A stretch of 64,000 nucleotides of DNA from a phage: sequence record PZ583742.1, one strand, 5' to 3'. The notes beneath the pieces were generated by a model, which did not search any database, was not told where the DNA came from, and saw only the letters and a list, made by a program, of their open reading frames with translations. The translations under genes and the position numbers were made by a program. Of the stretch, positions 6,137 to 50,595 are shown one piece after another. Numbering within the stretch: the first letter of the stretch is position 1; each line of letters opens with the position of its first letter.

Positions 6137-6369
6137 GTATTGCGATTTATATTAAATCTGAGTCATGTGATTCTTATCTGTATTCCTATGATACAGGCAC
6201 ATCAGAAGAGAAAATCAAAGAAGATTTAGAAAGTGATTTGGATATGTTCCGACCGATTTCTGAATACAGAATTCAAACTTCTGATAGTGAAAGCCCTTCA
6301 TTGGAAAATAGACTTGAATTTTTAATGAGTGATATTTTTAACCAATCATGGAAACGTGACGATGAGTAA
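6133..6369 (+). CDS. small acidic protein
   Basis: ORF overlapping upstream stop; RBS GAGGAA. Confidence 0.4.
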   Translation: MSIAIYIKSESCDSYLYSYDTGTSEEKIKEDLESDLDMFRPISEYRIQTSDSESPSLENRLEFLMSDIFNQSWKRDDE

Positions 6370-6820
6370 GAAAAACAAGGTGAAAGAATTATCGGCTGGC
6401 ATTATTTTCATGACTGAAGATAAAGAGTTATTCATGGGTCGTGTGACCGGTTCTCGTAAACCAGGTATGCCAGCACACAAATGGGACATCCCTAAGGGTC
6501 ATGTGGAAGCTGGTGAATCCCCAATTGAAGCGGCTATTCGTGAAACCGAAGAAGAAACTGGGTTTACCCAATACGACCCGGCATTCTTAAAAGACCTCGG
6601 TGAGTTCCGTTATTCAGATAACAAAAACCTTCACCTGTTTTTGTATACGGTTCCTGTCGAGCATGAGCAATTCAGACACAGTAAATGCTCTGCCTATCAT
6701 ACCTTCCCGGATGGCAGTTCGGTCCCAGAGTTTGATGCATTTGCTCTGATTAAACCGAGCCAATGGCAGTACGTGATGGGCAAATCGATGTACAAGGTAA
6801 TGACTCAAATTTTCGGATAA
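6362..6820 (+). CDS. nudE: Nudix hydrolase
   Basis: Nudix box G-x5-E-x7-RETEEETG (GHVEAGESPIEAAIRETEEETG); position immediately upstream of lysozyme gene as in T4. Confidence 0.8.
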   Translation: MSKKNKVKELSAGIIFMTEDKELFMGRVTGSRKPGMPAHKWDIPKGHVEAGESPIEAAIRETEEETGFTQYDPAFLKDLGEFRYSDNKNLHLFLYTVPVEHEQFRHSKCSAYHTFPDGSSVPEFDAFALIKPSQWQYVMGKSMYKVMTQIFG

Positions 6821-6846
6821 TAAATACTCCTATATAAGGGGGTATT

Positions 6847-7341
6847 ATGAATATATTCGAAATGTTACGTATAGATGAAGGTTGTAAGTTGGATTTGTAT
6901 AAAGATACTGAAGGCTATTGGACCATTGGTATCGGGCAACTGATAACTAAGAACCCATCGAAAGATGTTGCTCGCGCCGAGCTCGACAAGCTTATGGGTC
7001 GCGTCTGTAATGGTCGCATAACCCAGCACGAAGCTGAAACATTGTTTAATCGTTCGGTCGAAAAAGCTAAAGCCGGAATCTTGAGGCATCCTGTCTTAAA
7101 ACCTGTTTATGATGTACTGGATGAAGTTCGTCGTTGTGCGCTCATTAATATGGTATTCCAGATGGGTGTTGCCGGGGTAGCTGGTTTTCCTAAGGGTATG
7201 CGACTGCTGAAGGCTAAATCATGGGAAGCTGCTGCTAAGGAACTGGCTGACTCAAGATGGTATAAAGTCCAGACTCCGAATAGGGCAAAACGAGTTATCG
7301 AAACTTTCCGTACTGGAACTTTTGACGCATACAAAAGGTAA
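6847..7341 (+). CDS. e: T4-type lysozyme (endolysin)
   Basis: [51 protein letters not shown] matches T4 lysozyme along its length. Confidence 0.95.
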
Positions 7342-7344
7342 AAT

Positions 7345-7614
7345 ATGAAAACGTATCAAGAATTTTTGGCTGAATCTGTATTAAATGAATCAGATGAAAG
7401 CCGCATGGCATTTTTAGCTAAGAAAGAAGGCTTTGAGTTTACTTCTATTAAAAAAGTTAATGGAACTTCATTTAAAGTTGGTGATTGGACCTTTGGTAAC
7501 AAAGGAAGTGGCCAGTGGCAAATTGTAGATAAATCTGGTAAAGAAGTGGATTATTTGTTTAATCAGAAATTGGGTGATATCGCTAAACTTATGGGTCAAT
7601 ACTCTAAGAAATGA
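7345..7614 (+). CDS. internal protein (IP) with capsid-targeting sequence
   Basis: N-terminus MKTYQEFLAE matches T4 internal-protein capsid-targeting sequence with L-x-E protease site; sits between e and denV where T4 has ipIII/ipII. Confidence 0.65.
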   Translation: MKTYQEFLAESVLNESDESRMAFLAKKEGFEFTSIKKVNGTSFKVGDWTFGNKGSGQWQIVDKSGKEVDYLFNQKLGDIAKLMGQYSKK

Positions 7615-7645
7615 TGTACATCTCCAAATGATAGGGTTATAATGA
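7613..7645 (+). promoter_or_regulatory. early promoter-like element TGTACA-N17-TATAAT with hairpin around -10, upstream of denV
   Basis: TGTACA 7615-7620, TATAAT 7638-7643; inverted repeat tagggt/acccta brackets the -10. Confidence 0.5.
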
Positions 7646-7669
7646 CCCTATCAACTATGGAGAACAAAC

Positions 7670-8086
7670 ATGACACGTATTAACTTAACCCTGGTATCTG
7701 AACTTGCTGACCAACACCTTATGGCTGAATATCGTGAGCTTCCTCGCGTGTTTGGTGCGGTTCGCAAACATGTACAAAATGGTAAAAAGGTTTCTGACTT
7801 TAAAATCCCATCATCTTTTCTTTTAGGGACTGGTCATGTCACCTTCTTTTATGATAAACTTTTGTTCCTTAAAAACCGCCATCAAGAACTTATTGCGGAA
7901 TGTTTAAAGCGAGGGTTTAACATAAAAGATATTTCTACCCAAGATTTAAATGATATTCCTGATGAATGGAAGAATGATTATCAACCATCAATCTGGTCAA
8001 TTGAAATCAGTCAAGCCAGACTGAATGAGAAAATTTCTCAAAAGCCTACCTGGTACAAATACTATGGGAAAGCAGTGTACGCTTAA
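7670..8086 (+). CDS. denV: endonuclease V (pyrimidine dimer DNA glycosylase)
   Basis: [45 protein letters not shown] matches T4 DenV. Confidence 0.95.
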
Positions 8087-8135
8087 CTAAAAAAGGTTGT
8101 ATACTGATTTTATCAACCAAACAATAGAATATAAA

Positions 8136-8435
8136 ATGTTAACTTATAAAGAATTTATCACAGAAGCTAAAGCTCCTAAAGCATTTCAAATCGGAGTCCA
8201 AGGTAATTTAGACCAACAATATGTTGATGCTATTGTAGCAAGCCTCGGTAAACAGGGCGTGCAAGTGGATTCGGTTGATTTTACTAAAGGCAATACTTTT
8301 AATATTGTTACATCTAAAGGTTCTTTAGCTAAAGTTAAAAAGGCCTTTGGCGTAGCACAAGCATATGAAATTGACCATTCTGAATTAGAAAATAAAGGTC
8401 GCCAGAACACAATTAAAGGTTCTGGTTCTTTCTAA
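8136..8435 (+). CDS. internal-protein-like protein with capsid-targeting-like N-terminus
   Basis: From ATG 8136 the N-terminus is MLTYKEFITEA (CTS-like, I-T-E cleavage motif); the ORF-track start at 8097 is TTG. Confidence 0.5.
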   Translation: MLTYKEFITEAKAPKAFQIGVQGNLDQQYVDAIVASLGKQGVQVDSVDFTKGNTFNIVTSKGSLAKVKKAFGVAQAYEIDHSELENKGRQNTIKGSGSF

Positions 8436-8599
8436 TAAAGGCAAGCCGACCCTCTCCTCATGAACGTCGCGTCCTCTGAGTGATGGACCTTTCCCTACCT
8501 GTAATAAGGTCGAGCCCAAGTGCGGTAAAGGGTTTACATACGGATACATGGACGAATTATGTGCCAAGGAATGGCCCCACCACTTAAAAAGAGACAATT

Positions 8600-9145
8600 A
8601 TGAAAACGTTTTTAACCGGTAGTTACCTATCCCTGATGAATGCTTTTGCAAACCATTCTGATGCTAGAGTAGAACACATTTGTAATAGTGGGTTTTATGT
8701 ACCCGATTCACAAACCTTGTTTAAAGAATGCTGCACCTTAAAACTTGATGGTGGGCGCCAATCTGGTAAAACTAAAGCAGTATCCATTTTTGCTACGGAA
8801 TGGTTAGCTGATGGCGGCTCTATTGTTATTTTGTCTAATAACACGGCATATGCTAATGTTTCGGCTACTGCAATCCGAAAGGAATATTTTAATAACCACA
8901 CAGAAAGTATTAAGCACCGTTTGTACACTGATTCTGTTCGTAGTTTTATTGGTAACACTGCATGCAAATTCCGTGGATTATCACTTTCACGGGTTCTGTA
9001 TATAATTGATGAGCCTGTTAAAACACCTGATATGGATAAGATTTATGATGCCCACATAAAGGTTGTGCATTATTGCTGTCGTGCATCATGTGAAGAAACC
9101 AATCAAACCACACGTCCTCTGTTCTTTGTGATAGGAATGCAATGA
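8600..9145 (+). CDS. hypothetical protein with P-loop-like motif
   Basis: Walker A-like GGRQSGKT and Walker B-like VLYIIDE. Confidence 0.4.
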   Translation: MKTFLTGSYLSLMNAFANHSDARVEHICNSGFYVPDSQTLFKECCTLKLDGGRQSGKTKAVSIFATEWLADGGSIVILSNNTAYANVSATAIRKEYFNNHTESIKHRLYTDSVRSFIGNTACKFRGLSLSRVLYIIDEPVKTPDMDKIYDAHIKVVHYCCRASCEETNQTTRPLFFVIGMQ

Positions 9146-30998: not shown

Positions 30999-31556
30999 AT
31001 GAACGAAATTAAATTAACCAAGAATAACTATGTAAATAATAAAGAGCTTTTGAAAGCTATTTCGGAGTGGAAACAGAAGCTGAATGCGAACACCGACCCG
31101 AACAAAATTATTCGCCAGAACGATGTTATTGGTCTGGCGATTATGCTTATAGCCGAAGGTCTTAGCAAACGTTTCAACTTCTCCGGATATACCCAATCCT
31201 GGAAGCAAGAAATGATAGCGGATGGAATTGAGGCCGCAATAAAAGGTCTTCACAACTTCGACGAAACAAAATACGATAATCCACATGCTTACATAACAAT
31301 GGCTTGCTTCAATGCTTTCGTTCAGCGTATCAAAAAAGAACGTAAAGAAATGGCAAAGAAATATAGCTACTTCGTCCATAACGTATATGATTCACGTGAC
31401 GACGATATGGTGGCTCTGGCTGATGAAACATTTATCCAGGACATCTATGACAAAATGACACAGTACGAATCCTCTTTAGTTAAAGCGCCAGGGTCTGATA
31501 AGAGCGCCAAAGATAAAGAAGGTGATTTGGATTTTTTATATGGAACATCAATTTGA
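30999..31556 (+). CDS. 55: late-transcription sigma factor gp55
   Basis: [101 protein letters not shown] is near-identical to T4 gp55. Confidence 0.95.
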
Positions 31557-31773
31557 TATTACCGATTTTTTAGATAAAATCGAGGAAGACTTTACTGCGC
31601 TCCCATATTTCATTAAACTTTATCTGCGAGACATAAAAGGTCTTCCAATTGATATCGACCCTTTAAACGTCCGGAATCTGGAATTTACTTCACCGGATAA
31701 TAACGTTGATTACCGTTATCATGTGGATAATGCTAATCTATATTTTACAATTGAGTTAACTCCCAAGGATTAA
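31540..31773 (+). CDS. hypothetical protein
   Basis: ATG 31540 overlapping end of gene 55. Confidence 0.35.
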
Positions 31774-31774
31774 T

Positions 31775-32086
31775 ATGCAAGCTCCAGATATTTCTCAACT
31801 GACCGATAAGCAGATTGAAGAAGCACAGGAACGTCTCGAAGAAGCGAACGCACTCGAAGCAACCAGTCAAGCAGCGAAGATTCTGAAAAAGAATGCTCGT
31901 GAAATTGCACGACTGAATAAGCATGCTCAAGGCGCAGTGCTGGAAAACAATTTTGAAGCATACAAATATGCTTTAGTTAAACTGCGTGGGATTTACCGCC
32001 AACCCGTTACGGAAGACCTGATTAAGTTGATGTGGGATTCTACTCGCAAACAAATTTGGGAAATCGTAAATGGCATTAGTAAATAA
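31775..32086 (+). CDS. hypothetical protein
   Basis: ORF-track ORF, helical/charged. Confidence 0.4.
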   Translation: MQAPDISQLTDKQIEEAQERLEEANALEATSQAAKILKKNAREIARLNKHAQGAVLENNFEAYKYALVKLRGIYRQPVTEDLIKLMWDSTRKQIWEIVNGISK

Positions 32087-32270
32087 ACCCTTTAAACGGC
32101 TTCTTATTGGAGCCGCTTTCAGACTTCGCTCATATGGTAATATCTGTATCAAACAGACCGAAACCGAATACAAAATGATGGGCCAATATTCTGATGGTAT
32201 TTTTAAGATTGAGCCTGTAGCCAAGGTTTGGGTCGATTCTCATCAACTTAAGAAATGGTGGCAACGATGA
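32070..32270 (+). CDS. hypothetical protein
   Basis: ORF-track ORF. Confidence 0.35.
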   Translation: MALVNKPFKRLLIGAAFRLRSYGNICIKQTETEYKMMGQYSDGIFKIEPVAKVWVDSHQLKKWWQR

Positions 32271-32328
32271 TAACATGGACAGGTGGCTAATGAACGACGA
32301 ACATCCAGATTTTTAAGAGGCTATATGA

Positions 32329-32502
32329 ATGACGAATTCGACGGATTTTGATAAGATTAAATCTGACAAAAATGAGATGATACTTCAATTTGAAGCCGCT
32401 CGCATTAAAGCAGAAAATGAAGGTACTATTACCTATAAGCCTATCAAGTTCAGGTCTTCTCATGAACCTCTGTATGGTGTATTAATTGAAAAGGAAGCCT
32501 AG
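32329..32502 (+). CDS. small hypothetical protein (57 aa)
   Basis: ORF ending inside terminator hairpin; below ORF-track size cutoff. Confidence 0.3.
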   Translation: MTNSTDFDKIKSDKNEMILQFEAARIKAENEGTITYKPIKFRSSHEPLYGVLIEKEA

Positions 32503-32515
32503 TGCTTCCTTTTTT
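32492..32515 (+). terminator. rho-independent terminator
   Basis: aggaagc-ctagt-gcttcct followed by TTTTT. Confidence 0.6.
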
Positions 32516-32539
32516 GCTTTATATTCGGGATGATAAAAT
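32513..32539 (+). promoter_or_regulatory. middle-promoter-like element (MotA box TTTGCTTTA plus TAAAAT) upstream of gene 47
   Basis: TTTGCTTTA 32513-32521, -10 TAAAAT 32534-32539; directly after terminator hairpin. Confidence 0.45.
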
Positions 32540-32559
32540 GAACCAACTGAGGAGAGTAT

Positions 32560-32703
32560 ATGGAATTATTTTTAGGATATGTCGTGCTATTCATGGCATT
32601 CTACACATTCACAAGAGCTTGTTGGATAGGATTCTTTTCTACTCCTGACGGGTTCATTTCAGTAATTTTATTTTGCATTGCGATAACGGTGCTTGGCTTA
32701 TGA
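32560..32703 (+). CDS. small membrane peptide (47 aa)
   Basis: RBS GGAGAG; hydrophobic; overlaps gene 47 start. Confidence 0.3.
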   Translation: MELFLGYVVLFMAFYTFTRACWIGFFSTPDGFISVILFCIAITVLGL

Positions 32704-33719
32704 AAATTTTAAATTTAGGTGATTGGCACTTAGGTGTCAAAGCTGACGACCCATGGGCTCAAAACATTCAACGCGATGGTATTTTACAGGCGATTGCATA
32801 TTCCAAAGCGAATGGGATTAAAGTCTGGATTCAATATGGGGATATTTTTGACGTCCGTAAGGCCGTAACGCATAAGACGATGGAATTCAGCCGTGAGATT
32901 ATGGAACTCCTTCGTGAAGCAGGAATTACTATGCACACGATAGTCGGGAACCATGACATGAATCTGAAGAATAAGATTCATCCTAATGCTATCACTGAAC
33001 TCCTGAATAAGTATGACCATGTTAAAATCTACGATAAGCCAACGACTGTTGATTTTGACGGTTGTCAGATTGATATGATTCCATGGATGTGTGACGAGAA
33101 CGCAACTGACATTCACCAACATATCAAAACTTCTGGGGCTGAATATTGCATCGGTCACTGGGAATTAACCGGGTTTTATTTCTATAAAGGATTGAAATCC
33201 CACGGACTTGAGCCTGATTTCCTTAAGAAGTACAAGCAAGTTTGGTCTGGTCACTTCCACACAATTTCAGAAGCTGCAAACGTTAAGTACATCGGGACAC
33301 CATGGACATTAACAGCAGGTGACGAGAACGACCCACGCGGGTTCTGGGAATTTGATACCGAAACCGAAGAGATGAAATTTATTCCGAATGAAACCACCTG
33401 GCATCGGAAGATTTTCTATCCAAACGAAACTATTAACTACGACGACTTCAAAGACTTATCAGTCCGTGTTATTGTAGAAAAAGTCGATAAAGACCTGACC
33501 AAGTTCGAATCTGAATTAGAAAAGCGTGTGCATGAATTGCGTGTTGTCAATAAGGTTGATAACAGTGTTGACACATCAGACTCTGATGAAGAGTTAGACA
33601 TAAAACGCTTAACAGATATGATGGCAGAATATATCGATGCATTACCTGACGCTAATGAGAAAGAATCAAAAGCTCTCAAAGCATTGGCCAATAAATTATA
33701 TCTTGAGGTGCAACCGTGA
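32700..33719 (+). CDS. 47: recombination endonuclease subunit gp47 (Mre11-like)
   Basis: MKILNLGDWHLGVKADDPW..IQYGDIFD..IVGNHD..GHFH phosphoesterase motifs; adjacent to gene 46 as in T4. Confidence 0.9.
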   Translation: MKILNLGDWHLGVKADDPWAQNIQRDGILQAIAYSKANGIKVWIQYGDIFDVRKAVTHKTMEFSREIMELLREAGITMHTIVGNHDMNLKNKIHPNAITELLNKYDHVKIYDKPTTVDFDGCQIDMIPWMCDENATDIHQHIKTSGAEYCIGHWELTGFYFYKGLKSHGLEPDFLKKYKQVWSGHFHTISEAANVKYIGTPWTLTAGDENDPRGFWEFDTETEEMKFIPNETTWHRKIFYPNETINYDDFKDLSVRVIVEKVDKDLTKFESELEKRVHELRVVNKVDNSVDTSDSDEELDIKRLTDMMAEYIDALPDANEKESKALKALANKLYLEVQP

Positions 33720-40362: not shown

Positions 40363-43077
40363 ATGCAAGAATTTTATTTAACTATCGAACAAATCGGTGA
40401 CAATCTGCTTGAACGATACATTGACAAGAACGGTCATGAACGTGTTCGTGAAATCCCTTATGCTCCATGCTTGTTTATGCACGCCCGGGAAGGCCAGGCT
40501 GCAAAGTATACAGACATCTATAATAAAGGTTGTGTGAAAAAAGAATTCGATTCCATGCGTGATGCATCCCAGTGGATGAAGCGAATGAATGACATGGGCC
40601 TCGAAGTTATGGGTATGGATGACTTTAAACTCGCATACTTGTCCGACCGTTACCCACACGAAATCAAATATGATTCAAGTAAAATCCGTGTTGCTAACTT
40701 CGATATCGAGGTGACATCTCCTGATGGGTTCCCTGAACCGTCTGAAGCACGTCACCCTATTGATGCCCTGACGCACTATGATTCGGTAGACGATAAATTC
40801 TATGTCTTTGACCTTTTGGGCTCACCATACGCCACTGTGGAGCAATGGTCTATTGATATTGCTGCTAAGCTGCAGGAAGACGGTGGTGATGAAGTCCCTG
40901 AAGAAATCCTGGAAAAAATTGTTTATATGGCTTTCGATTCAGAAGAAGAAATGCTCCAGCAGTATTTGGTATTCTGGAACGAGAAAACTCCGGTTATGTT
41001 AACCGGTTGGAACATCGAGAAGTTTGATATTCCATATATCTACAACCGTCTTAAAAATGTATTTGGTGAAGCTACGGCAAAACGTCTGAGCCCACATCGT
41101 CGTACAAAAGTTAAGGTCATTAACAACGGCTTTGGTGAAGAACAAGAAATCATTCAGATTCTGGGTATCTCTGTTCTGGATTATCTGGACCTGTATAAAA
41201 AGTTCAGCTTCACAAACCAACCGTCTTATTCGTTGGATTATGTTGCGGAATCTGAACTGGGTGTTGGTAAACTCCCGTATGATGGTCCGATTTCTAAACT
41301 GCGTGAATCAAATCACCAGCGGTATATTTCTTATAACATCATCGACGTTTATCGTGTTGTGCAGATTGACCGTAAGCGGCAGTTTATTAACCTGAGTCAG
41401 TCAATGGGTTATTACGCAAAAATGCAGATTCAGTCTGTATTCAGCCCAATCAAAACTTGGGATGCGATTATCTTTAACAGCCTGAAGACTCAAAACAAAG
41501 TCATTCCGGAAACCAAATCGCATGTTCGTCAATCGTTCCCTGGTGCATTTGTTAAGGAACCTATTCCGAACGCGTACAAATATGTGATGAGCTGTGACTT
41601 AACATCTCTGTATCCAAGCATCATCCGACAGATTAATATCAGTCCAGAAACGATTGCCGGTTCATTTGCCCCAGCGCCGATGTATGAATACATCGCAGGA
41701 ACTGCTGACCGTCCATCTGATACATTTAGTTGTGCTCCAAATGGTATGATGTATTTTAAAGATGTTGCGGGTATTATTCCGACAGAAGTCACCAAGGTGT
41801 TTAATCAGCGTAAAGAGCACAAAGGCTATATGCTTGCGGCTCAACGTAATGGTGAACTGATTAAGGAAGCTCTGCGTAATCCAGGAACTGGCACAACCGA
41901 ACCAGAAGTTGATTATCGTCATGACTTTGATGACAATATGAAAACGGCCCTGCATGGTCTGAATCAAACAGTCCTGAATGGTATGTTGTACAAAGCGCAG
42001 ATGGAAGAAGTTGCAGGCATGACCGCACAGATTAACCGTAAACTGCTTATCAACAGTTGTTATGGCGCTCTGGGCAATATCTGGTTCCGTTACTTTGACC
42101 TGCGAAATGCAACCGCGATTACATCTTTCGGACAACTTGCATTGCAGTGGATTGAGCGTAAAGTTAACGAATACTTCGATAGTGTCTGTGGGACAAGCGG
42201 CGAAACTTATGTGTTCTATGGCGATACTGACTCCATTTATATCCAGTGCGATAACCTGATTAAAAAGGTTGGTGGCGAATCTAAATTCCGTGATACAAAC
42301 CACCTGGTTGACTTCATGGACAAGTTTGCGAAAGACCGTCTGGAACCGGCAATCGATAAAGCTTTCCGTGAGCTGGCTGAATACATGAACAACAAACAGC
42401 ACCTTATGTTTATGGACCGTGAAGCGATTGCATGTCCTCCGCTGGGTTCTAAGGGTGTGGGTGGATTCTGGACGGCGAAGAAGCGTTATGCACTGAACGT
42501 GTACGATATGGAAGGCACACGATATGCTGTTCCGAAATTGAAAATCATGGGTCTGGAAACTCAAAAGTCGAGTACTCCAAAGGCATGTCAGAAAGCTCTG
42601 AAAGAATGTATCCGCCGTATGCTGCAAGAAGGTGAAGAATCTCTGCAGACATACTTCAAGGAATTCAATAAGGAATTTAATGAGCTTAACTACATGACCA
42701 TCGCAGGTGTATCATCGGTTAACAACATCCAGAAATATAATGAAGGCGGTTTCCCTGGATTTAAGTGCCCGGCTCATATCAAAGGTGTGCTTGCATATAT
42801 GCGTGCAACTAAAGGTCTGAAGACTGTTCCACAAATCATGGAAGGGGAAAAGGTGTATGTACTTCCTCTTAAAGTCGGTAACCCGTTTGGTGAAACCGTG
42901 ATTGCATGGCCATCTGGGATTGAACTCCCGATTGAAATCCGTGACCAGGTTCTGCAGTGGATGGACTACAACATACTGTTCCAGAAGACTTTTGTTAAGC
43001 CATTAACAGGTTTCTCTGAAGCTGCAAAGGTTGATTACGAAAAGAAAGCAACTCTTTTTGATATGTTTGACTTTTAA
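40363..43077 (+). CDS. 43: DNA polymerase gp43 (family B)
   Basis: 904 aa; N-terminal EFY..IE..G.N..ERYID.NG.ER.RE; exo motifs VANFDIEVT, YNIIDV; polymerase motifs SLYPSII, KLLINSCYGALG, YGDTDS. Confidence 0.97.
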   Translation: MQEFYLTIEQIGDNLLERYIDKNGHERVREIPYAPCLFMHAREGQAAKYTDIYNKGCVKKEFDSMRDASQWMKRMNDMGLEVMGMDDFKLAYLSDRYPHEIKYDSSKIRVANFDIEVTSPDGFPEPSEARHPIDALTHYDSVDDKFYVFDLLGSPYATVEQWSIDIAAKLQEDGGDEVPEEILEKIVYMAFDSEEEMLQQYLVFWNEKTPVMLTGWNIEKFDIPYIYNRLKNVFGEATAKRLSPHRRTKVKVINNGFGEEQEIIQILGISVLDYLDLYKKFSFTNQPSYSLDYVAESELGVGKLPYDGPISKLRESNHQRYISYNIIDVYRVVQIDRKRQFINLSQSMGYYAKMQIQSVFSPIKTWDAIIFNSLKTQNKVIPETKSHVRQSFPGAFVKEPIPNAYKYVMSCDLTSLYPSIIRQINISPETIAGSFAPAPMYEYIAGTADRPSDTFSCAPNGMMYFKDVAGIIPTEVTKVFNQRKEHKGYMLAAQRNGELIKEALRNPGTGTTEPEVDYRHDFDDNMKTALHGLNQTVLNGMLYKAQMEEVAGMTAQINRKLLINSCYGALGNIWFRYFDLRNATAITSFGQLALQWIERKVNEYFDSVCGTSGETYVFYGDTDSIYIQCDNLIKKVGGESKFRDTNHLVDFMDKFAKDRLEPAIDKAFRELAEYMNNKQHLMFMDREAIACPPLGSKGVGGFWTAKKRYALNVYDMEGTRYAVPKLKIMGLETQKSSTPKACQKALKECIRRMLQEGEESLQTYFKEFNKEFNELNYMTIAGVSSVNNIQKYNEGGFPGFKCPAHIKGVLAYMRATKGLKTVPQIMEGEKVYVLPLKVGNPFGETVIAWPSGIELPIEIRDQVLQWMDYNILFQKTFVKPLTGFSEAAKVDYEKKATLFDMFDF

Positions 43078-43146
43078 GTGTTTACAACGGCAATGGATTG
43101 CCGTATGATTACCTCATCAACTGATGAATAACTTAAGGATATTAAA

Positions 43147-43389
43147 ATGGAAACATTAATTGCGGGTACTGTTGTTCTTGGTGCGGGTTCTTTCTTCCTG
43201 GCTGCACTGGCATATTTTCTGCCGTGGATTATCGCGCTGCTGCGTGGTACCAAAAGTAATTGTGGAATCTTCTTTGTTAACCTCCTGTTAGGTTGGACAA
43301 TGGTCGGATGGTTTATTGCATTTATCTGGGCACTCGTTGCTGAACGTAAATCAAACGCACAAGTAATTATCATCAAGGAAGCAAAATGA
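43147..43389 (+). CDS. imm: Imm-like small membrane protein
   Basis: 80 aa, two TM helices; immediately downstream of gene 43 as T4 imm. Confidence 0.5.
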   Translation: METLIAGTVVLGAGSFFLAALAYFLPWIIALLRGTKSNCGIFFVNLLLGWTMVGWFIAFIWALVAERKSNAQVIIIKEAK

Positions 43390-43529
43390 AGATAATTACA
43401 ATTATTGTACTGATTGCATTTTTTAGTATGTCAATCTATTGGGCAATAATGACTCCGCATATGATTCCAACTTTAATTTTGGGTTGGGTATTTTTGGGGC
43501 TCCAAGCCCGCTATGAATGTTTTAATTGA
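43386..43529 (+). CDS. small membrane peptide (47 aa)
   Basis: ATG overlaps upstream stop; hydrophobic. Confidence 0.3.
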   Translation: MKIITIIVLIAFFSMSIYWAIMTPHMIPTLILGWVFLGLQARYECFN

Positions 43530-43539
43530 GGAAAATACA

Positions 43540-44043
43540 ATGAAAAAGTTAGCTATCGCAGCTGTTATGCTGCTATCTGGTTGTGCTTACCAGGGTGATG
43601 TTGTTAATGCCAACGAGATTGGTAAAGCGCGAATTGCTGCAGACCGTCAGGTGCATAATGGTTCCTTTGATTTCAAAGGCGGTACTGGACTTATCTACAA
43701 ACGCGACAACAATCAATGTGGAAACAACTGCGCGAAATATGCTCAACAAGAAATTGAGTACAAACGCGAGCAAGCTGCGAAGCATGACGAAATCATTGCC
43801 AAGCTGGAAGCAGAAACTAAGCGACAAAATGACCTGGATACTGTTAACCAGATTTCACAGGTCTGCATGTCATATATCAATATGCAGATAAACATCATGC
43901 GCGCAGAAGCTTATCAGGCAGCGGAGACGGGTTCTCCAAAAGCTAATGAGTACCGCGATATGTATCAGCGTTCTGCTCAAAACCGTCTGAGCTATATTAA
44001 TAAATGTGTGGCTAAAGAGAAAGCACGCCAAGGTATTAACTGA
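43540..44043 (+). CDS. lipoprotein with coiled-coil region
   Basis: ATG 43540 after GAGGAAAA; signal peptide plus lipobox MKKLAIAAVMLLSGC; occupies the T4 42/beta-gt slot. Confidence 0.6.
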   Translation: MKKLAIAAVMLLSGCAYQGDVVNANEIGKARIAADRQVHNGSFDFKGGTGLIYKRDNNQCGNNCAKYAQQEIEYKREQAAKHDEIIAKLEAETKRQNDLDTVNQISQVCMSYINMQINIMRAEAYQAAETGSPKANEYRDMYQRSAQNRLSYINKCVAKEKARQGIN

Positions 44044-44150
44044 TGTTATTATTACTTCTGATTGTTGTAACAGTAATTGGTTTGTTGCTATTAGAAAAGC
44101 GTAATAAGCATTTGAATGAAGAAAACTGGAAACGTGGTAACGTTTACTAA
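44043..44150 (+). CDS. small membrane peptide (35 aa)
   Basis: ATG overlaps lipoprotein stop (TGATG); hydrophobic N-terminus. Confidence 0.25.
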   Translation: MLLLLLIVVTVIGLLLLEKRNKHLNEENWKRGNVY

Positions 44151-44177
44151 ATTGCTCTGAACTGCGAGAAGAATATT

Positions 44178-44306
44178 ATGATTGGTATGTTATTGATTAG
44201 CCTATGGCTGTTGTCTGCATTTGGTATTGGGTTTATGTACTGGTGGGACAAACGTCAGACCCGGAAGATTGTTGAACGTGCAATTAATCGTGGATTCAAT
44301 CGTTAA
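44178..44306 (+). CDS. small membrane peptide (42 aa)
   Basis: ATG 44178; TM segment LLISLWLLSAFGIGFMYWW. Confidence 0.3.
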   Translation: MIGMLLISLWLLSAFGIGFMYWWDKRQTRKIVERAINRGFNR

Positions 44307-44385
44307 TTGCTCTAAAAATACAGTGATATAATTATCCTATCTTAAACCTGTGAGAAAAATATAATGGTGCCTATGGAAAAAATGA

Positions 44386-45564
44386 ATGTCTATTGCAGAT
44401 TTGAAATCCCGTTTGATTAAAGCTTCTACATCCAAAATGACCGCGACTCTTACCAAGTCCAAGTTTTTTAATGATAAAGATGTAGTTCGTACAAAAATCC
44501 CGATGCTGAACATTGCAATCAGCGGTGCACTAGATGGTGGTATGCAGTCAGGTTTGACTATTTTTGCTGGTCCGTCAAAACACTTTAAATCCAATATGGG
44601 TTTAACGATGGTCTCTGCATATATGAACAAATACCCCGATGCAATCTGTTTGTTCTATGATTCAGAATTTGGTATCACAGAAGCCTATCTTCGTGCAATG
44701 AAAGTTGACCCGGAACGTGTTATCCACACACCAATCCAGTCGGTTGAACAATTGAAAGTTGATATGGTTAACCAGCTTGAAGCAATTGAGCGTGGTGAAA
44801 AAGTCATTATCTTTATTGACTCAATCGGTAACATGGCATCGAAAAAAGAAACAGAAGATGCGATGAACGAAAAAGTCGTTGGCGATATGACTCGTGCTAA
44901 ATCCCTGAAATCTCTGTTCCGTATTGTTACCCCGTATTTTAGTATCAAGGATATTCCTTGTGTCGCGGTTAACCATACAATCGAGACGATTGAGATGTAT
45001 AGCAAAACCGTTATGACCGGTGGCACAGGTGTTATGTATTCCGCGGACACCGTATTCATTATCGGCAAACGTCAGATTAAAGAAACTGGTAAAGAACTTG
45101 AAGGCTTCCAATTTGTTCTGAACGCCGAAAAATCTCGTATGGTCAAAGAGAAAAGTAAATTCTTCATTGATGTAAAATTCGATGGCGGTATTGACCCGTA
45201 TTCTGGCCTGCTTGATATGGCAATGGAAATCGGATTTGTGGTGAAACCAAAAGTTGGTTGGTATAACCGTGAATATCTTGATGTTGAGACCGGTGAAATG
45301 GTCCGCGAAGAAAAATCATGGCGCGCAAAAGATACTAACTGCACCGAATTCTGGGGCCCATTGTTCAAACACGAACCTTTCCGTGACGCAATCAAACGCC
45401 ATTACCAACTGGGTGCAATCGATAGCAATGCTGTTGTTGATGCCGAAGTTGATGCGCTTATTGCCTCCAAGGTTGAAAAATACACTGCTCCTGAAGGTAA
45501 GACAAAACCGTCTGCTGCAGATATTGAAAACGATTTAGATATGATGGAAGACCTTGATGAATGA
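44386..45564 (+). CDS. uvsX: recombinase UvsX (RecA-like)
   Basis: DLKSRLIKASTSK.TA.LT.SKFFN.KDVVRTKIPM.NIA.SG..GGMQSGL..AGPSK.FKSN.GLTMVS.YM..YPDA.CLFYDSEFGIT is near-identical to T4 UvsX. Confidence 0.96.
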   Translation: MSIADLKSRLIKASTSKMTATLTKSKFFNDKDVVRTKIPMLNIAISGALDGGMQSGLTIFAGPSKHFKSNMGLTMVSAYMNKYPDAICLFYDSEFGITEAYLRAMKVDPERVIHTPIQSVEQLKVDMVNQLEAIERGEKVIIFIDSIGNMASKKETEDAMNEKVVGDMTRAKSLKSLFRIVTPYFSIKDIPCVAVNHTIETIEMYSKTVMTGGTGVMYSADTVFIIGKRQIKETGKELEGFQFVLNAEKSRMVKEKSKFFIDVKFDGGIDPYSGLLDMAMEIGFVVKPKVGWYNREYLDVETGEMVREEKSWRAKDTNCTEFWGPLFKHEPFRDAIKRHYQLGAIDSNAVVDAEVDALIASKVEKYTAPEGKTKPSAADIENDLDMMEDLDE

Positions 45565-50242: not shown

Positions 50243-50408
50243 GATTTCTGTCTTCCAGATTTTTGAAGAATATGAAATCGTATCGCAAGACCAAGAAGCA
50301 ATCCATGTTATCGCTGATGATGGTGTTACCTGGATTATTCCGTTGTATCATGAAGACACTTATGAAGTGACTGATGCAAATGGTGATAAAGCTATCTTCG
50401 TTGTATAA
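50217..50408 (+). CDS. hypothetical protein
   Basis: ORF overlapping upstream end. Confidence 0.4.
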   Translation: MSAMCTGSKISVFQIFEEYEIVSQDQEAIHVIADDGVTWIIPLYHEDTYEVTDANGDKAIFVV

Positions 50409-50411
50409 ATA
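50404..50411 (+). promoter_or_regulatory. T4-type late promoter TATAAATA upstream of CTS-bearing small gene
   Basis: Exact TATAAATA 17 nt upstream of ATG 50428. Confidence 0.55.
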
Positions 50412-50427: not shown

Positions 50428-50595
50428 ATGAAAACATTCAAAGATTTTATCAACGAAAATATGGTTGCCGGTGATGCGGGTGGAAACCCAACTAATATCG
50501 CAACAGGTACCACTTCCGGGGCAGTTGTCAATAAAGGCCCTGAACAAATCCCATCAAAAAAGCGTAAGAACAAAGACGATAAACCTACAGTATAA
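50428..50595 (+). CDS. small internal-protein-like protein with capsid-targeting sequence (55 aa)
   Basis: N-terminus MKTFKDFINE (CTS-like, I-N-E protease site); exact late promoter TATAAATA at 50404-50411; RBS AAAGGGGG; below ORF-track size cutoff. Confidence 0.55.
   Translation: MKTFKDFINENMVAGDAGGNPTNIATGTTSGAVVNKGPEQIPSKKRKNKDDKPTV

Follow-up and report, generated by a model that had tools for sequence, protein, structure and literature searches.

Two tag-bearing internal-protein genes, an ip7 orthologue and a gene from a family without an Ip number, flank denV in a Gaprivervirus

The stretch of phage DNA analyzed here (sequence record PZ583742.1; 64,000 nucleotides, hereafter the window) belongs to a Gaprivervirus, a T-even phage of the VR7/SP18 type. 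The locus under study reads e, ORF1, denV, ORF2 and vs.8 on the + strand, the counterpart order in T4 being e, ipIII, ipII, denV and vs.8. Its left anchor is gene e (6847..7341, +), which encodes a T4-type lysozyme (Pfam Phage_lysozyme, E 7e-13; PHROG 7). ORF1 (7345..7614, +; 89 aa) begins with an ATG located 4 nt past the e stop codon and is preceded, 7 nt upstream, by the Shine-Dalgarno motif AAGG. The conserved gene denV follows (7670..8086, +), coding for a pyrimidine-dimer DNA glycosylase (Pfam PF03013, Pyr_excise, E 1e-15; PHROG 1183, E 5e-62) and separating the two slots in which cassettes are found. Alignment with the DNA of relatives identifies the next segment (8087..8135, +) as an ip10-type leader fused directly to ip7, and this gene is ORF2 (8136..8435, +; 99 aa from an internal ATG). 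Both ORFs, which the preliminary description had placed on either side of denV from their openings MKTYQEFLAE and MLTYKEFITEA, are indeed found at these positions on the + strand, and both lie in one of the two variable internal-protein loci, the one beside e/denV, the other being beside 57B.

A late-promoter-like box, AATAAATA (6819..6826, +), lies 20 nt upstream of e and matches the T4 sequence TATAAATA at 7 of 8 positions; late transcripts may arise here and run through e into ORF1. Neither the exact T4 late promoter TATAAATA nor TATAAAT occurs in 6300-8700. Upstream of denV, a promoter scan recovered a sigma-70/T4-early-type promoter, TGTACA-17-TATAAT (10/12), embedded in a hairpin (7615..7643, +). 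The module is identical in VR7, SP18 and UPEC07 and is homologous to the GTTTACATCTCC…TA..AT module before T4 denV. On its right the ORF1 cassette ends at this module, which phages with an empty slot also have; the left edge, as judged from the junctions of UPEC07, 212, CJ20, VR7 and SP18, coincides with the last codons of e (…DAYKR and stop).

ORF1 aligns along its full length (residues 1-89) with the 92-position profile of PHROG 8765, "internal virion protein" (E 2.6e-37). This family comprises 43 phage records, has no Ip number and is rarer than the Ip7 family; it already bears the label "internal virion protein" in both PHROGs and RefSeq, and hence ORF1 is not new. In the family alignment the tag is invariant and the body strongly conserved. 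The 43 records reach beyond Gaprivervirus into several T4-like genera, with hosts including Pectobacterium, Serratia, Enterobacter, Edwardsiella, Erwinia, Kosakonia and Proteus, and within Gaprivervirus the gene occurs in a minority of records (seven matches at 98-99% identity, one partial). Members such as gp132 of Pectobacterium phage PM2, a Mosugukvirus, and gp233 of Enterobacter phage CIP9 are 62-78% identical to ORF1 and are likewise situated directly after gene e. The PM2 protein differs, however, in that a second cassette with a tag-like start (MNESFLNE/A) is joined to the domain. An exhaustive HMMER search with the ORF1 body against 1.84 billion representatives retrieved four small phage relatives only and no cellular homologue; the tag is present in all three of these relatives with an intact N-terminus (P0007, P0036 and P0039). 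A search of the PDB by sequence returned no match. Similarities of the body to repeat proteins (Big_13, WG_beta_rep, SprB) come down to one common beta-hairpin motif, G-x-W-x-I-x-D-x-x-G-K, and represent a motif-level resemblance, not homology.

ORF2 is an orthologue of Ip7, a protein of T-even phages that was reportedly first described by Repoila and colleagues in 1994. Residues 1-99 span positions 1-101 of the profile of PHROG 2667, "internal head protein" (E 1.5e-41), and identity amounts to 96% with VR7 Ip7, 97% with SP18 gp122 and 49% with T2 Ip7. The VR7 annotation ties its gene to T2 Ip7, and the T2 record has ip7 at the matching place. ORF2 thus agrees with Ip7 of T2 and VR7 in full-length alignment, length, tag and place downstream of denV; it differs in residue 2, Leu not Lys (as in VR7), in the replacement of Q5 by K, and in lying directly behind the ip10 leader. 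Since ip7 is an annotated gene family (284 phage records), ORF2 is not new either. A PDB match of ORF2 to 6xi1, "flagellin hook IN motif" (E 3e-4), was dismissed, as a search with the family profile no longer returned it.

The ORF track starts ORF2 at a TTG (8097-8435), whereas the preliminary description preferred the internal ATG at 8136. The latter is supported, because the PHROG 2667 alignment opens at this residue, the internal Met is the alignment start in all of the 19 homologues compared, VR7 has an in-frame TAG 3 codons upstream of its ip7 ATG (as read from the DNA alignment), and the upstream ATG annotated as the start in UPEC07 (MEYKM) is an ATA in the window. The leader between denV and ORF2 (8087..8135) includes this former ATG together with a -10-like TATACT, which is TATAAT in relatives; as far as …GAATATAAAATG its sequence is the ip10 leader, as in the ip10 cassette of VR7 and SP18.

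Both ORFs open with a ten-residue capsid-targeting tag, MKTYQEFLAE in ORF1 (codons 1-10, 7345-7374) and MLTYKEFITE in ORF2 (codons 1-10, 8136-8165), each with a predicted cleavage after E10, by gp21. The tag of T4 IPII/IPIII, proteins which are also encoded beside e/denV, reads MKTYQEFIAE. In T4 IPIII, residues 4 and 7 decide targeting and residues 8 and 10 decide processing (PMC9026906). The targeting residues Y4 and F7 are present in both ORFs. Processing by gp21 calls for Leu or Ile as residue 8 and for Glu, as opposed to Asp, as residue 10, and the ORFs have L8/E10 (ORF1) and I8/E10 (ORF2). E10 is invariant across both family alignments, and ORF1 has a second invariant site, L13-x-E15. A loose version of the tag, M.T[YF].[ED][FLY]..E, matches the six-frame translation of the window three times, always at an ORF-opening ATG, and was absent from 100 shuffled controls. 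The presence of the tag is therefore far beyond chance, and the capsid-targeting-like N-termini that had been noted earlier are borne out. The proteins gp21, gp22, gp23, gp67 and gp68 are encoded by VR7 (gp185-189), a phage of the same genus; head genes fall outside the 64 kb of the window. A literature search found no virion proteomics covering Ip7 or ORF1-type proteins.

After the tag the resemblance to T4 Ip1, Ip2 and Ip3 ends. BLASTP of the bodies gave E > 0.1 in every pairing of ORF1 and ORF2 with each other and with T4 Ip2 and Ip3, and profile-profile comparison aligned residues 1-12 only. Similarity to T4 IPII/IPIII is undetectable after residue 12, and hhalign against T4 Ip1 aligned residues 1-9 and nothing beyond. 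Thus, while the similarity search against known internal proteins assigned ORF2 to Ip7 and ORF1 to PHROG 8765, neither matches the bodies of Ip1-3, and no homology of the mature proteins to Ip1*, Ip2 or Ip3 was found; the earlier statement that the two bodies differ from one another and from T4 IPII/IPIII is thus correct. Pfam yielded sub-threshold noise only for the two ORFs (Pex14_N, DUF1694), and NCBIfam no meaningful match. The predicted mature products are of about 8.9 kDa and pI 9.2 (ORF1) and about 9.4 kDa and pI 9.3 (ORF2), similar to T4 IPII in their mass of about 9 kDa and pI of about 9.2-9.3. T4 IPI (Ip1*), the inhibitor of GmrSD-CT596, is of the same size class and has a related propeptide (MKTFKEF start). 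AlphaFold models ORF1 (pLDDT 83.7) as a helix, five strands and a helix, and ORF2 (pLDDT 70.9) as beta-alpha-beta-beta-alpha-beta; the predicted folds of the two proteins do not indicate a function. The mature IPI* is reported to be built as a helix, small beta-sheets and a helix (Rifat and colleagues, 2008), and the predicted order of elements in ORF1 resembles that description. Both ORFs evolve as coding sequences under purifying selection, with more synonymous than non-synonymous changes: relative to close relatives, ORF1 has 4 codons that differ synonymously and 1 that differs non-synonymously, the corresponding numbers for ORF2 being 11-13 and 3-4. The ORF2 family, like that of ORF1, has a strongly conserved body.

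The hypervariability of internal-protein loci, invoked in the preliminary description, is evident among Gapriverviruses. VR7 and SP18 have nothing in the slot between e and denV, VR20 has Ip5 there and CJ20 a 94% copy of T4 Ip2, and an ORF1-type gene fills it in the window as well as in at least six further phage records (UPEC07, 212, TH55, TH44, DK-13 and pEC-M719-6WT.2). The exchangeable slot of ORF1 is therefore one that, in CJ20, holds a close copy of a proven type IV restriction inhibitor, and the Ip2 and ORF1-type cassettes have a common 5' leader, TACAAATAAGGTAAAATATGAAAACGTAT. Three arrangements occur on the 3' side of denV, namely ip10-127c-ip7, 127c-ip7 and ip7 alone, each with the ip10 leader in front. 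The window and UPEC07 are missing ip10 and ORF127c (about 650 bp), and it is because of this deletion that ip7 stands directly behind the ip10 leader. In the window the crossover site coincides with the ATG, and in UPEC07 it falls within the tag; the ip10 and ORF127c cassettes were lost here through recombination at the tag-coding repeats. In general, the locus evolves by swaps of whole cassettes, via recombination in the common leader and tag-coding sequence.

Taken together, the part of the preliminary description that reads the two ORFs as tag-bearing internal-protein genes in a known variable locus stands; the genes are not new, given that ORF2 is Ip7 and the ORF1 family has already been labelled. 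In effect, they are an ordinary case of the known variable anti-defence locus in a T4-like coliphage, and the conceptual gain is little. The interpretation that we favor, and consider rather probable, is that both are Gaprivervirus internal-protein cassettes (ORF2 as an Ip7 orthologue, ORF1 from an unnamed family) whose products are packaged, injected and most likely directed against a nuclease. During prohead building, the ten-residue capsid-targeting sequence would attach its protein to the core of the scaffold (gp22/gp67/gp68). The prohead protease gp21 would then cut after Glu10, at L/I-x-E, freeing a small basic mature protein in the head; in the T4 case, roughly hundreds of copies remain with the packaged DNA. 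At the next infection the proteins would leave the head together with the DNA and enter the cell ahead of any phage gene expression, where each would most likely bind and block one variant of a host nuclease cutting the incoming, probably modified, DNA. Among possible targets, GmrSD/BrxU-like type IV restriction enzymes are the leading candidates.

The anti-defence role proposed for ORF1 and ORF2 follows the example of T4 Ip1-3 as GmrSD blockers, together with the Ip2 copy in the CJ20 slot. Every one of T4 Ip1, Ip2 and Ip3 has its own single target among the GmrSD type IV restriction enzymes, which it inhibits (PMC12373910); IPII and IPIII, for instance, are injected inhibitors of GmrSD-ECOR21/BrxU and GmrSD-ECOR17, respectively, and the growth of T4 on ECOR17 requires IPIII (PMC9391042). 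It has been proposed that all proteins of both Ip loci target GmrSD variants (PMC12373910). However, T4 has the hmC-glucose pathway, whose genes were not found in the phage studied here. No homologue of T4 gp42, alpha-gt or beta-gt was detected in the window by tblastn, which did find uvsX, imm, 43, 47 and 55, with the syntenic uvsX-imm-43 and 47-55 regions present; glycosylated hmC DNA, the GmrSD substrate, is thus not indicated. Gapriverviruses have also been reported to be without hmC synthase (PMC8056088, PMC12115623). Thus, glucosyl-hmC, the classic GmrSD substrate, is probably absent, although another DNA modification in this phage is possible. Between imm and uvsX, the ORF at 43513-44043 was considered as a base-modification gene in place of 42/beta-gt; it has a lipoprotein signal and is no candidate for an enzyme.

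These observations bear on an alternative scenario, in which the proteins are injected anti-defence factors with a target other than GmrSD, in another first-response system that senses the entering Gaprivervirus DNA or its injection, for example a nuclease for the DNA modification of Gapriverviruses, a component of a BREX or RM system, or an abortive-infection sensor. In its favor are the failure to find hmC and glucosylation genes in the window despite the syntenic regions, and the retention of denB, alc and dCTPase by the genus, a set of genes suggestive of an unidentified base (PMC8056088, PMC12115623). Furthermore, ip4-10, including ip7, produced no reproducible inhibition of 15 synthesized GmrSD groups (PMC12373910, Supplementary Fig. 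9), and members of the ORF1 family occur in several T4-like genera and on diverse hosts. Nevertheless, the 15 groups are drawn from many GmrSD subtypes, and BrxU/GmrSD-ECOR21 also cuts hypomodified DNA (PMC12373910). In addition, CJ20, itself a Gaprivervirus, carries in the same slot its close copy of the BrxU/GmrSD-ECOR21 inhibitor Ip2, which implies that GmrSD-like enzymes do threaten these phages. For the two proteins together we regard a target outside GmrSD as improbable, if worth keeping in mind. For the ORF1-type protein taken singly, we would put forward somewhat more readily, but still tentatively, that it is injected to inhibit a host defence outside the known Ip1-3 targets, either a modification-specific nuclease or a non-GmrSD first-response system.

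A mainly structural role for packaged internal proteins, that is, neutralizing or organizing DNA in the head or assisting prohead core assembly, as T4 IPIII does in part, appears less probable still. The small basic mature products would suit it, and so would the absence of anti-GmrSD activity of Ip7 in the published test (PMC12373910). At low salt, T4 internal proteins bind DNA, and loss of normal IPIII in a mutant slows head assembly and leaves a burst of roughly 40% (PMC9026906). However, viable phages such as VR7 and SP18 leave the slot between e and denV empty and others fill it with unrelated proteins, a pattern that fits a dispensable, host-specific function and not a structural need. 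Moreover, defence targets are now known for all three T4 internal proteins (PMC12373910), and what each family conserves in its body is a folded domain and not merely a basic peptide. That either ORF, or both, is a decaying remnant, no longer packaged, with ORF2 starting at TTG 8097 and its tag buried, is very improbable: it could draw on the lack of a clear Shine-Dalgarno sequence before ORF2, two leader changes relative to related phages (TATAAT to TATACT and GGAAT to AGAAT) and the start chosen by the ORF track, but the tags are intact, codon differences are mostly synonymous, the TTG overlaps the promoter-like -10 element, the loss of the upstream ATG argues against an N-terminal extension, the same Met is the start in homologues with different upstream sequence, and VR7 has its in-frame stop.

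Internal proteins act ahead of phage gene expression and help to set the host range of the T-even phages used for therapy. Targets are known for three of them (T4 Ip1-3), with Ip7 and the ORF1 family among the rest. Why a genus without the hmC-glucose pathway retains a full set of cassettes, Ip2 included, is a pertinent question. In this regard, Gapriverviruses offer a natural experiment, in that close relatives differ by whole cassettes at two slots. The ORF1-type gene is present in some near-identical members and not in VR7 or SP18, so natural isogenic-like pairs exist, and their differential plating could reveal the target.

Two open reading frames flanking denV, ORF1 (7345-7614, +, opening MKTYQEFLAE) and ORF2 (8136-8435, +, opening MLTYKEFITEA at an internal ATG), are present as the preliminary description gave them, and its reading of both as internal proteins (IPs) is reasonable, although they are of an already known kind. 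ORF2 is Ip7, the product of a gene already named and annotated: its identity is 96% to the VR7 ip7 product, 97% to SP18 gp122 and 49% to T2 ip7, its profile match is PHROG 2667 ('internal head protein'; E 1.5e-41), and 284 phage records contain it. ORF1 matches PHROG 8765 ('internal virion protein', E 2.6e-37) and belongs to an IP family that is annotated yet still uncharacterised. This family is much rarer than that of ORF2 (43 records), and none of the records carries an Ip number for it. Seven are 98-99% identical to ORF1 (one partial); the other matches, 37-78% identical, come from phages of Klebsiella, Pectobacterium, Kosakonia, Enterobacter, Edwardsiella, Serratia and Erwinia, and from Escherichia phages UP19 and EcS1 and Proteus and Providencia phages, among others, many of which have the gene directly 3' of the lysozyme gene e.

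The bodies, that is, the proteins minus the N-terminal tag, had been described as unlike each other and unlike T4 IPII and IPIII, and this is what we find. With the first ten residues removed, BLASTP gave E > 0.1 in every pairing of six proteins (ORF1, ORF2, T4 IPII, T4 IPIII, VR7 Ip10 and VR7 ORF127c), and profile-profile comparison of the ORF1 and ORF2 families, and of each with T4 IPI, aligned residues 1-12 only. When the tag-less ORF1 body was run with HMMER exhaustively against 1.84 billion representative proteins, only four small phage relatives were recovered, and the tag is present in all three that have an intact N-terminus. The remaining matches, rejected as relatives, were repeat proteins with a single beta-hairpin motif in common.

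The capsid-targeting sequence (CTS) common to T4 IPII and IPIII is MKTYQEFIAE. Its positions 4 and 7 serve targeting and positions 8 and 10 processing, with cleavage blocked by Asp at position 10 (PMC9026906, a review of L. Black's work). Both ORFs carry Y4, F7, L/I8 and E10, in keeping with the capsid-targeting-like N-termini first ascribed to them. A loose tag motif has three matches in six frames of the 64-kb window, each at an ORF-opening ATG, and no occurrence in 100 shuffles. The internal ATG, rather than TTG 8097 of the ORF track, is the right start of ORF2, because its Met is where the PHROG profile and 19/19 homologues begin to align, the differing sequence ahead of VR7 ip7 has a stop in frame three codons before the start, the upstream in-frame ATG chosen by the UPEC07 annotators (MEYKM…) is ATA in the window, and the TTG overlaps a promoter-like -10 element. 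Relative to close relatives, ORF1 has four synonymous and one non-synonymous differences, and ORF2 11-13 and 3-4, respectively; since the differences are mainly synonymous, both are maintained coding genes.

At the DNA level, identity of the region is 95-96% with Escherichia phages pEC-M719-6WT.2, TH55 and UPEC07, and about 94-95% with VR7 and SP18, which are the type members of Gaprivervirus (a genus of Straboviridae, Tevenvirinae). The order here is nudE (6329-6820, +), e (6847-7341, +), ORF1, denV (7670-8086, +), ORF2 and a vs.8-like P-loop gene (8600-9145, +; Walker-A GGRQSGKT; weak Terminase_6N/AAA matches, E 2e-4); the corresponding T4 series is e, ipIII, ipII, denV, vs.8. The vs.8-like product begins MKTF… without the remainder of the tag, and the label 'IpIII internal head protein' on its UPEC07 homologue looks like a mis-annotation.

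The e/denV locus is a site of cassette exchange. In an alignment of the window, UPEC07, VR7 and SP18, ORF1 forms a clean indel of some 280 bp, with the final codons of e on one side and the promoter module of denV on the other. The slot between e and denV is empty in VR7 and SP18, and is occupied elsewhere by Ip5 (VR20), a protein 94% identical to T4 Ip2 (CJ20) or the ORF1 type (phage 212). Ip2 and ORF1-type cassettes have the leader TACAAATAAGGTAAAATATGAAAACGTAT in common, and their divergence begins inside the tag. On the 3' side of denV, VR7, SP18, VR20 and CJ20 have ip10-ORF127c-ip7, phage 212 has ORF127c-ip7, and the window and UPEC07 have ip7 alone; in all these arrangements the ip10 leader precedes the first remaining gene. 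In the window the crossover point is the ATG, leading into an ip7-type tag; in UPEC07 it falls inside the tag, where the ip10-type ATTACTGAA is joined to the ip7 body. The losses are independent deletions, through recombination between repeated leader/tag sequences. Such recombination was reportedly proposed by Repoila et al. in 1994 for IP polymorphism. The opposite outcome is seen in Pectobacterium phage PM2 (1501-2004 of the retrieved locus), in which one ORF of 167 aa joins an ORF1-family domain, in frame, to a second cassette. The second cassette opens with the tag-like MNESFLNE/A (slash, cut), an internal predicted gp21 site, and the fusion would be a naturally occurring double internal protein. 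The value of the locus lies in its natural cassette variants among near-identical phages.

The ORF1 ATG lies 4 nt 3' of the stop codon of e and is preceded by an AAGG Shine-Dalgarno; the gene lacks a separate promoter. At the end of e (7330-7345), a 2-nt deletion relative to UPEC07 and phage 212 takes out the TAA stop, which lengthens the lysozyme by one residue (ending …DAYKR versus …DAYK) and moves its stop codon to that position. A late-promoter-like AATAAATA (6819-6826, 7/8 match) lies 5' of e and a T4-early-type promoter, TGTACA-17-TATAAT (7615-7643), 5' of denV; no exact TATAAATA occurs in 6300-8700. The ORF2 leader (8087-8135) is the VR7/SP18 ip10 leader, altered at three points: the A-run (8088-8093) is one A longer, the -10-like element is TATACT in place of the TATAAT of relatives, and ATGGAAT has become ATAGAAT, which loses the upstream ATG and the sole purine-rich SD-like stretch. 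Judging from these changes, Ip7 expression may be lower or differently timed.

By analogy with T4 (PMC9026906), the tag of either protein would bind the scaffolding core and then be taken off by gp21; about 300 copies per head would stay with the DNA and be ejected into the cell at infection. Within the genus, VR7 has the head machinery gp67, gp68, gp21, gp22 and gp23. Our literature search found no virion proteomics for the Ip7 or ORF1 families. As to function, the best current guide, again by analogy, is Silas et al. 2025 (PMC12373910), where Ip1, Ip2 and Ip3 (T4 IPI, IPII and IPIII) each inhibit a single GmrSD-type type IV restriction enzyme, a different one for each protein, with no cross-protection; those authors propose GmrSD variants as the targets of all proteins from both Ip loci. 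The same study tried ip4-10, including ip7, on 15 synthesised GmrSD groups, and an apparent ip7/CLS_011 interaction was not reproduced. Growth on ECOR17 needs IPIII, and tag-less IPIII works in trans (Srikant et al. 2022; PMC9391042). The near-identical Ip2 in the CJ20 slot provides positional evidence that the slot carries anti-restriction cargo and that GmrSD/BrxU-like enzymes matter to Gaprivervirus.

No homologues of gp42 (dCMP hydroxymethylase), alpha-gt or beta-gt were found in the window, where uvsX, imm and genes 43, 47 and 55 are present (regions syntenic with T4: 55…47, 30999-33710; 43-imm-uvsX, 40363-45564); the VR7 annotation agrees. The 42/beta-gt position is filled by an ORF (43513-44043) with a lipoprotein signal (…LLSGC). 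Two papers (PMC8056088, PMC12115623) record the absence of hmC synthase from Gapriverviruses and the retention of denB, alc, denA and dCTPase, which suggests an unknown base in their DNA. Therefore, the natural target of their IPs may be a nuclease of different specificity. This raises the question of what IP cassettes target in a genus without glucosyl-hmC.

A third tag-like ORF in the window (50428-50595, +, 55 aa, MKTFKDFINE…) is a homologue of gp61.1, 70% identical to that of T4, and lies just 5' of gene 61 (primase). Its late promoter, TATAAATA (50404-50411), is perfect and its Shine-Dalgarno strong. As a whole, gp61.1 is a small-scale paralogue of residues 57-101 of gp23 (44% identity, E 7e-11), across the gp21 cleavage site: gp23 …FLTE/AEIGGDHGYNATNIAAGQTSGAV… aligns with gp61.1 …FINE NMVAGDAGGNPTNIATGTTSGAV…, and F4, F7, I8 and E10, the CTS-defining positions, with gp23 F59, F62, L63 and E65. 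It occurs in 1459 phage records, where a further match often falls inside the major capsid gene. No description of its function was found in the literature search; gp61.1 might act as a decoy or a regulator, or be a peptide that is packaged.

Directly 3' of ORF2, before the vs.8-like gene, lies a conserved element (8430-8604, +; about 150-175 nt) whose G+C is 49% versus 39% for the window. It has 988 phage records across Tevenvirinae genera, no Rfam match, and no annotation in three of the four examples inspected; it is sometimes duplicated (as on contig L032). In T4 the 5' end of vs.8, as annotated, overlaps the element, and the start given for that gene is probably wrong. A covariance model built on eight copies matched 35/36 searched loci. 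In its alignment 95.4% of cells pair versus at most 46.5% with partners slid, and the covariation score is 0.223 versus 0.080 in shuffles (0/500 reach 0.223). Double changes occur in 5/5 pairs of helix 1 and 8/9 of helix 3. All these numbers lean high, the alignment having been fitted to its own model. Covariation under this model supports a multi-helix fold, making the element a candidate new structured RNA.
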